This document shows, one piece after another, positions 1-401 of a stretch of 410 bases of DNA. Under the pieces are notes generated by a model, which was given only the letters and a program-made list of their open reading frames with translations, had not been told where the DNA came from and ran no database searches. The position numbers and the translations under genes were made by a program. Position 1 is the stretch's first letter. Each line of letters starts with the position of its first letter. The DNA comes from Escherichia coli. Its GTDB lineage: Bacteria; Pseudomonadota; Gammaproteobacteria; Enterobacterales; Enterobacteriaceae. The stretch lies in assembly GCF_003334335.1 (NCBI RefSeq), contig NZ_QOWQ01000196.1, one strand, 5' to 3'.

Positions 1-401
1 GCAAGCACCTCATTTTTTGTTGGGGTGCTTTTTTTCAATTCAGCGATATAGCACTCCAGTTTTTCAATGCGTGATTCGATATCATCTTTTTCTGACAGTA
101 TCGTGTTATATGCATTGTTAATTTGTATGGTATACCGATCTTCGGAACAAAGGCACTTTTCCTGTGACTGTTCATCCCCTTCACATAACCCGGCAGCAAT
201 ATCCATGAAAAACTGCTTCGCCTTCTTTTTCGCCTCAGCTTCGTAAAACTCCAGCGGGGCACCTTCAACACGATCAAGATCAATCACCACATTTGGCAAC
301 AACAGTGACGTATACCCACCCGTTTCCAGCGCTACAGTAACAGTAATCTTATCCGGGTAATTATTTATCCCTTTAACAACCAGTTCGTATTGTTTATTCA
401 T
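1..401 (-). CDS. Hypothetical protein, 5' portion only (start codon in window, 3' end beyond left edge). Visible product (133 aa): MNKQYELVVKGINNYPDKITVTVALETGGYTSLLLPNVVIDLDRVEGAPLEFYEAEAKKKAKQFFMDIAAGLCEGDEQSQEKCLCSEDRYTIQINNAYNTILSEKDDIESRIEKLECYIAELKKSTPTKNEVL...
   Basis: Manual reverse-complement translation: ATG at plus coordinates 401..399, then 133 sense codons with no stop down to position 3 (2 nt left over at 1..2). An in-frame TAG at 405..407 fixes this ATG as the first possible start. An open frame this long in AT-leaning DNA is unlikely by chance. The protein has a non-random make-up: alternating hydrophobic beta-like segments, an amphipathic Lys/Ala helix and a heptad-spaced Ile/Leu helix. 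Codon choice (CTG, CCG, GCG, AAA) looks like a Gram-negative enteric-type gene, but that is impression only. Not in the ORF track, consistent with the track needing an in-window stop. Confidence 0.78.
   Translation of the reverse strand, partial: MNKQYELVVKGINNYPDKITVTVALETGGYTSLLLPNVVIDLDRVEGAPLEFYEAEAKKKAKQFFMDIAAGLCEGDEQSQEKCLCSEDRYTIQINNAYNTILSEKDDIESRIEKLECYIAELKKSTPTKNEVL
5..35 (+). terminator. Intrinsic-terminator-like hairpin plus T-tract on the plus strand, embedded in the minus-strand coding region
   Basis: Plus-strand stem 5-11 (gcacctc) pairs with 22-28 (ggggtgc): 6 Watson-Crick pairs and one G-U wobble. Loop 12-21 (attttttgtt), followed immediately by T7 at 29-35. The loop is larger than in typical strong terminators (8 nt if a12:t21 also pair), so stability is only moderate. 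The orientation would terminate rightward transcripts entering from the left edge. Confidence 0.25.

Follow-up and report, generated by a model that had tools for sequence, protein, structure and literature searches.

The sequence analysed here (the window) is a 410-nucleotide (nt) stretch of Escherichia coli DNA (assembly GCF_003334335.1, contig NZ_QOWQ01000196.1), and the element under study is the gene on its minus strand. This open reading frame (ORF) starts with the ATG at 401-399 and runs through 133 sense codons to position 3, where it leaves the window without having met a stop codon. An in-frame TAG lies upstream at 405-407, so that this ATG is the earliest start possible. By exact look-up, the translation equals GenBank entry RCQ52620.1, named [quoted passage not shown], which is encoded on a contig of 410 nt. 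The longer contigs L088, L089 and L090 are each identical to the window over 410 of 410 nt, and the full-length protein (P0167) has 197 amino acids (aa), identical across all 133 visible residues. The minus-strand ORF is a real gene; the remaining ORFs of the window (34, 59 and 82 aa) were rejected, having neither homologues nor other support. It is near certain that the window holds the 5' two-thirds of a 197-codon gene of the DUF1327/YdfR family, belonging to a lambda-like E. coli prophage. The coding features of the window are as follows.

405-410, minus strand: last sense codon (GAG) and stop codon (TAG) of the upstream class II (S21-type) holin gene, annotated as a holin coding sequence in the related loci L001 and L002 and matching PF04971 in L088-L090
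165-401, minus strand: DUF1327 N-terminal domain (three beta-strands and a long helix) with the LCEGDE junction, codons 1-79, module A, delimited by Pfam, the structural model and Foldseek
93-164, minus strand: module B1, a variable acidic Cys-containing linker (QEKCLCSEDRYTIQINNAYNTILS), codons 80-103, one of two alternative cassettes
54-92, minus strand: conserved core of the heptad helix (EKDDIESRIEKLE), codons 104-116, common to both cassette types
1-53, minus strand: module D1 (CYIAELKKSTPTKNEVL), codons 117-133 and a partial codon, with the gene continuing past the window to 197 aa

Family membership was established at the level of profile, fold and location. Residues 1-80 of the query matched positions 1-80 of the 93 in the Pfam model DUF1327 (PF07041), which is the YdfR family (E-value = 1.8e-34, 118 bits), and PF07041 was present in all 120 listed homologues. 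Together with the shared fold and the holin-adjacent position in a late operon, this places the protein in DUF1327/PF07041. A preliminary description of the window, made from the letters alone, had seen no recognisable family; that statement is overturned by the Pfam match and by GenBank, which annotates the same family. The gene is phage-derived and already catalogued, and it counts as already known, since the exact sequence stands in GenBank under the family name. Strong PHROGs matches were also obtained (2091, 1085, 2735 and 406), all of unknown function. NCBIfam had no family for the 133-aa fragment nor for a 385-aa long form of the protein, and a sequence-profile search of the PDB returned nothing under E = 0.3. 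The family is narrow, its matches forming 54 clusters at 50% identity among 1.84 billion representatives. The domain is kept across Escherichia, Salmonella, Yersinia, Hafnia, Providencia and Morganella, and its named structural relatives are all from Enterobacterales.

The full-length AlphaFold model was poor (predicted local distance difference test, pLDDT, 58.6), while the model of the N-terminal domain (N-domain) on its own was confident (pLDDT 83.8, predicted template modelling score 0.72). It folds as beta-beta-beta-alpha, with strands at residues 5-14, 18-27 and 37-43 and a helix at 50-73. Confidence is low over residues 73-106, with the B1 linker under pLDDT 50, and a helix follows at 108-123 (pLDDT 75-82) with hydrophobic residues spaced 4-3-4-3 (I108, I112, L115, I119, L122). 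The beta-rich N-terminus, amphipathic helix, Cys-containing acidic linker and heptad helix of the preliminary description all find their counterpart in these models. Foldseek against AFDB50 at E ≤ 0.001 returned essentially only family members, named DUF1327/YdfR or unnamed enterobacterial phage proteins (template modelling scores 0.75-0.96), and against the viral BFVD it returned nothing at that threshold. No transmembrane segment was found, as had been anticipated (highest Kyte-Doolittle 19-residue mean 1.08), and the full-length protein has a grand average of hydropathy (GRAVY) of -0.57. Membership in the holin/antiholin class of membrane lysis proteins is ruled out by these values, and the full-length product is predicted to be soluble and acidic (pI about 5). 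The N-domain itself has a net charge of -5 and a pI of 4.5. Acidic and aromatic residues make up most of its invariant positions (E46, E51, F52, Y53, E54, E74), and its helix carries a semi-conserved basic patch, KKKAK in the window protein and RRSVR in K-12. The double-stranded RNA-binding domain (PF00035) was considered and rejected, because the N-domain is without the N-terminal helix alpha-1, gives no hit to the dsrm hidden Markov model and is acidic; compared with that domain, its basic patch lies in mid-helix and not at the helix N-terminus.

The genomic neighbourhood is that of a lysis cassette in the late operon of a lambda-like prophage. In L088-L090 the gene order starts with a helicase, a primase, a Q-type antiterminator, a SASA/NanS-p esterase and DUF1378 (called only in L089). 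It continues with the class II holin (PF04971), DUF1327, a convergent 86-aa ORF, the lysozyme and Rz (Phage_lysis), and ends with Nu1, terminase A, W, portal, protease, decoration protein and major capsid protein. The gene thus lies in a Q-dependent late operon, 3 nt (402-404) downstream of the stop codon of an S21-type pinholin gene and upstream of lysozyme and Rz, which implies that it is made late in lytic growth alongside the lysis proteins. Several claims of the preliminary description hold at this point. It had proposed an uncharacterised, phage-derived accessory gene, and DNA identical at 410 of 410 positions sits in a lambda-like prophage between holin and lysozyme; inspection of the flanks, which it had recommended, revealed late-operon phage genes (Q, holin, lysozyme, Rz, terminase and head genes). 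The operon-internal start is explained by the holin codons at 405-410 just ahead of the ATG, and the GC content is indeed below 50% (41.7% in the window). Neither a characterised housekeeping family nor a context of core genes was encountered. Its alternative of a defence island was not upheld, the surroundings being a phage late/lysis operon and the only match in PADLOC-DB v2 being a chance-level hit to Csm5 over the coiled-coil region (E = 0.0066, 14 bits).

The synteny is strongly kept among related loci. In all 79 loci with upstream DNA, the end of the holin match and the start of DUF1327 are 7-10 nt apart (the stop codon and a spacer of 3-6 nt), while the lysozyme follows 37-880 nt downstream. 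The cryptic prophage Qin of K-12 has the same holin-DUF1327-lysozyme order (essQ-ydfR-rrrQ), with ydfR overlapping the lysozyme start, and so do the inducible phages PhiR12_1 (PV340549) and H-19B. A Salmonella copy keeps the slot behind a different holin family (PF16080), and a divergent, stand-alone copy of 71 aa is located directly behind an Rz/Rz1 pair. The gene is AT-richer than its neighbours, with a GC content of 43% against 54% for both the holin and the lysozyme genes. Further upstream, the Salmonella prophage L087 bears a ParE-toxin/HTH pair (2559-3259) between the Q antiterminator and the holin, in the slot that is occupied by the Shiga toxin (Stx) genes or the NanS-p esterase in E. 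coli phages.

Alignment of the homologues revealed that the gene is a mosaic of five modules, A to E. Module A (residues 1-79) finishes in the nearly invariant LCEGDE. Module B exists as two unrelated alternatives, and DNA alignment showed that the B1 of the window is replaced in other prophages by an unrelated cassette that is 42 nt longer (PEKRPIILEAQ...). Module C (KDDIESRIEKLE) is common to both types, module D again has two alternatives, of which the window has D1, and module E (KKRRDEQFAAFYDYCIEVTRRNFVKAFEESKSLQ) is the closing module of many versions. Overall protein length ranges from 110 to 385 aa, the commonest form having 114 aa. The B1+D1 combination of the window is rare: a search for the exact junction gave no match in GTDB species representatives or IMG/VR, and megablast against 5426 complete E. 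coli genomes found none that matches the window in a single piece, the best of them parting from it exactly at the start of D1 (positions 1-53).

Long forms of 263-385 aa (the IMG/VR loci L050 2032-3189, L027, L023 and L010) have two more C-terminal domains after module E (…HSFGGFHEAIKHDVERSPG… and …EWECNRPSFVVSGD…YLKNNKKQGLM…). These added domains have no match to a named function in Pfam or NCBIfam, and Pfam/PHROGs gave only families of unknown function for them; deletions in such long forms may have given rise to the common form of 114 aa. Two close homologues are labelled as pseudogenes in the RefSeq annotation made by the PGAP pipeline (L001 6010-6255 and L002 6010-6351, both DUF1327/YdfR genes, "incomplete; missing C-terminus"). 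The pseudogene reading was rejected, as both have an unbroken ORF, of 169 and 176 aa; the flags probably arose because mosaic genes were compared with a reference made up of other cassettes. In the draft assembly the window is by itself an entire short contig, which starts within the holin stop region and finishes within module D1. Both of its flanks are sequence common to co-resident lambdoid prophages (up to nine matching places per genome), which makes it probable that the assembly was interrupted here between repeats.

The gene is widespread. Megablast matched 2662 of the 5426 complete E. coli genomes, about half, in up to nine places per genome, as well as 90 phage records, mostly Stx1a- and Stx2c-converting phages and inducible ECOR phages. 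At the protein level, 100 phage records were found, H-19B included; many Stx1 and Stx2c phages and some Stx2a phages have the gene. The S21-type holin occurs in 434 phage records, at most 100 of which have DUF1327, and hence the gene is accessory and not part of the core lysis machinery.

Selection was studied on the N-domain, whose ORF is intact, without a stop codon, in 84 of 84 related loci. The ratio of non-synonymous to synonymous substitution rates (dN/dS, pairwise Nei-Gojobori) had a median of 0.51 among close variants and was about 0.8-1.0 against the commonest variant, a value that rests on only ~15 non-synonymous and 5 synonymous differences. In the comparison with K-12 ydfR, dN was 0.45 and dS was saturated. 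Changes are concentrated in residues 26-49, and the helix 50-72 is conserved. This pattern fits long-term constraint combined with a fast-evolving surface loop; weak constraint would be compatible with it as well.

Two further elements run antisense to the gene, one inside the window and one beyond it.

3-35, plus strand (equal to L088 10399-10367): terminator-like hairpin with a 10-bp stem and an 8-nt loop (AAGCACCTCA-TTTTTTGT-TGGGGTGCTT), followed by TTTTT, from a consensus scan
L088 10542-10802, minus strand (L001 6467-6727; L004 954-1214; L087 4455-4715), all outside the window: convergent 86-aa ORF

The hairpin lies inside the coding module D1. Its RNA folds at -15.5 kcal/mol (z = -4.5), and none of 200 shuffles folds as well. 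Judged by sequence, it has the stem-loop and T-run of a Rho-independent terminator, and in Rfam only the terminator end of GcvB matched it, below threshold. It is kept in 17 D1-type loci, without compensatory changes or covariation. The convergent ORF has the same orientation as the hairpin, its stop codon lying 143 nt upstream of it. Located between the DUF1327 and lysozyme genes, it overlaps the final 53 nt of the former; E. coli and Salmonella copies with module E have it, and most loci lack it. It belongs to phrog_2572, of unknown function, and it bears the label "DUF1823 containing protein" in phage PhiR12_1. The hairpin is absent from D2-type loci that do have this ORF. A search for promoter-like sites ahead of DUF1327 and of the convergent ORF gave none.

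In the literature on DUF1327, PF07041 and ydfR, the only functional data found concern YdfR of E. coli K-12 (b1555, UniProt P76160; prophage Qin), and the RNase E and RNA results belong to that protein only. A bacterial two-hybrid screen that used RNase G as bait picked up a fragment of residues 1-72 three times, and this fragment gave stronger two-hybrid signals with RNase E constructs having the catalytic half (Rne 1-597); FLAG-tagged Rne1-598 co-eluted with Strep-YdfR, and a DNase-resistant nucleic acid, RNA, co-purified with it (PMC13232886; 2026). The ydfR operon is silent in standard growth, and overexpression of ydfR was not toxic and changed few transcripts (PMC13232886). A toxin reading of the family was rejected on the lack of toxicity. 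According to the citation in the same paper, an earlier genetic screen tied ydfR to envelope integrity (cited in PMC13232886). YdfR and the window protein share the Pfam family, the predicted beta-beta-beta-alpha N-domain and the slot between a class II holin gene (essQ in K-12) and a lysozyme gene (rrrQ). They differ in that YdfR has 103 aa and a short basic tail, whereas the window protein has 197 aa, with the flexible Cys/acidic linker and the coiled-coil modules.

By transfer from this homologue, we tentatively favour a reading of DUF1327 as a late-expressed accessory factor that docks on RNase E or RNA; as a whole mechanism it is possible, with the chances falling somewhat short of even. 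The N-domain would dock on the catalytic half of host RNase E, on RNA attached to that enzyme, or on the two together, and the coiled-coil tail would oligomerise the protein. The protein would then be a dispensable factor, made late, that tunes RNA decay or processing in the late phase, and not a core component of lysis. Phage T4 Srd, as described in the work citing it, attaches to RNase E in its N-terminal half and promotes the decay of host mRNA (Qi et al., 2015, cited in PMC13232886). It is likewise a small phage-encoded cytoplasmic protein docking on the RNase E catalytic half, as is proposed for DUF1327, but the likeness is a functional analogy only, and no relationship in sequence or structure was found, no search having been aimed at it. 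The virulent phage T4 has Srd among its early genes, whereas DUF1327 is a late gene of temperate phages. Several points weigh against RNase E/RNA docking. The window protein has only 39% identity to K-12 YdfR, across 99 residues, so that transfer of the binding result is an extrapolation. The contact between YdfR and RNase E was reported without a nuclease control, so RNA may bridge the two; the authors allow that a contaminant held the co-purified RNA, and few transcripts responded to overexpression (PMC13232886). The net charge of -5 is unusual in an RNA binder, the high dN/dS among close variants may reflect diversifying selection or weak constraint, and a role in RNA decay leaves the invariable location in the lysis cassette unexplained.

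That location is what a second reading takes as its starting point, in which the protein modulates the timing of lysis. The acidic cytoplasmic protein would bind the pinholin at its C-terminal tail, which is basic and cytoplasmic (…KIKEDRRKAARGE), or act on the lysozyme or spanin step, and would advance or delay hole formation like a cytoplasmic antiholin-type cofactor. T4 RIII is a cytoplasmic lysis regulator and antiholin cofactor. Regulators of this type are, like DUF1327, small soluble proteins whose genes accompany the lysis genes and which could act on a holin's cytoplasmic tail. No homology between them and DUF1327 was detected, no search having been aimed at it, and DUF1327 is absent from most phages with the same holin. 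The gene is always within the lysis cassette: it starts 3-6 nt past the holin stop in each of the 79 loci with upstream DNA, overlaps the start of the lysozyme gene in K-12, holds its position behind another holin family in Salmonella and, as the 71-aa copy, stands directly behind Rz/Rz1. The mostly acidic and aromatic character of the invariant residues agrees with it, as does the reported link to envelope integrity, to the extent that the screen is described in the paper citing it (PMC13232886). The envelope phenotype of a ydfR knockout could, however, be a polar effect on the downstream lysozyme, and the adjacency may reflect merely a permissive insertion site in the late operon. Moreover, at least three quarters of the phage records with the same holin do without the gene, which is hence dispensable for lysis, and the protein has neither a transmembrane segment nor a membrane anchor. 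We consider modulation of lysis timing doubtful, with lower chances than RNase E/RNA docking; the two are not mutually exclusive.

The mosaic structure would also fit a decaying passenger, left over from a longer ancestor (up to 385 aa) and now without a role. It would persist because essential lysis genes enclose it on both sides, and recombination among the prophages of one host would keep reshuffling it. The C-terminal parts, varying in total length from 110 to 385 aa through cassette swaps and truncations, would agree with decay, as would a commonest form of only 114 aa, a dN/dS nearing 1 among close variants, the frequency of frameshifted or truncated database entries and the silence of ydfR in K-12 under standard growth (PMC13232886). 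Yet the N-domain ORF is unbroken in every one of the 84 loci, the domain is conserved over six enterobacterial genera, dN against the K-12 type is only 0.45 although dS is saturated, tight translational coupling is maintained, and viable, inducible phages carry the gene. Loss of all function is improbable. Least probable of all, and in our judgement very unlikely, is a moron-type fitness or defence factor, in which DUF1327 and the convergent 86-aa ORF would form an AT-rich insert that is expressed in the lysogen from its own signals and shields the bacterium through superinfection exclusion, abortive infection or the like. The drop of GC to 43-45% over the two genes between flanks of 54%, the convergent phrog_2572 ORF overlapping the 3' end by 53 nt and the antisense hairpin in the window would all suit such an insert. 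It is opposed by the want of a significant PADLOC match and of a promoter-like site ahead of either gene, by the coupling of DUF1327 to the holin, which makes it late-expressed, and by the irregular occurrence of the antisense elements, since the ORF is missing from most loci and the hairpin from the D2-type loci having that ORF.

Returning to RNase E/RNA docking and lysis timing, a broader and rather unlikely proposal would unite them. DUF1327 proteins would form a class of late-operon, lysis-cassette factors for host interaction in Shiga-toxin and other lambdoid phages, in which the N-domain docks on RNase E/RNA or on the pinholin tail and the recombining C-terminal cassettes diversify specificity, thereby setting late-mRNA stability or lysis timing and hence the release of toxin and phage. 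The sole addition of the window to known biology is a rare combination of cassettes, and the residual interest lies in the function of the family within the lysis and toxin-release operon of Shiga-toxin phages. The gene is found in about half of the complete E. coli genomes and in Stx phages, where it is part of the operon governing lysis and the release of toxin. If either the RNase E/RNA-docking or the lysis-timing idea is true, it would be a cheap handle on late expression or on the timing of release in Shiga-toxin phages.
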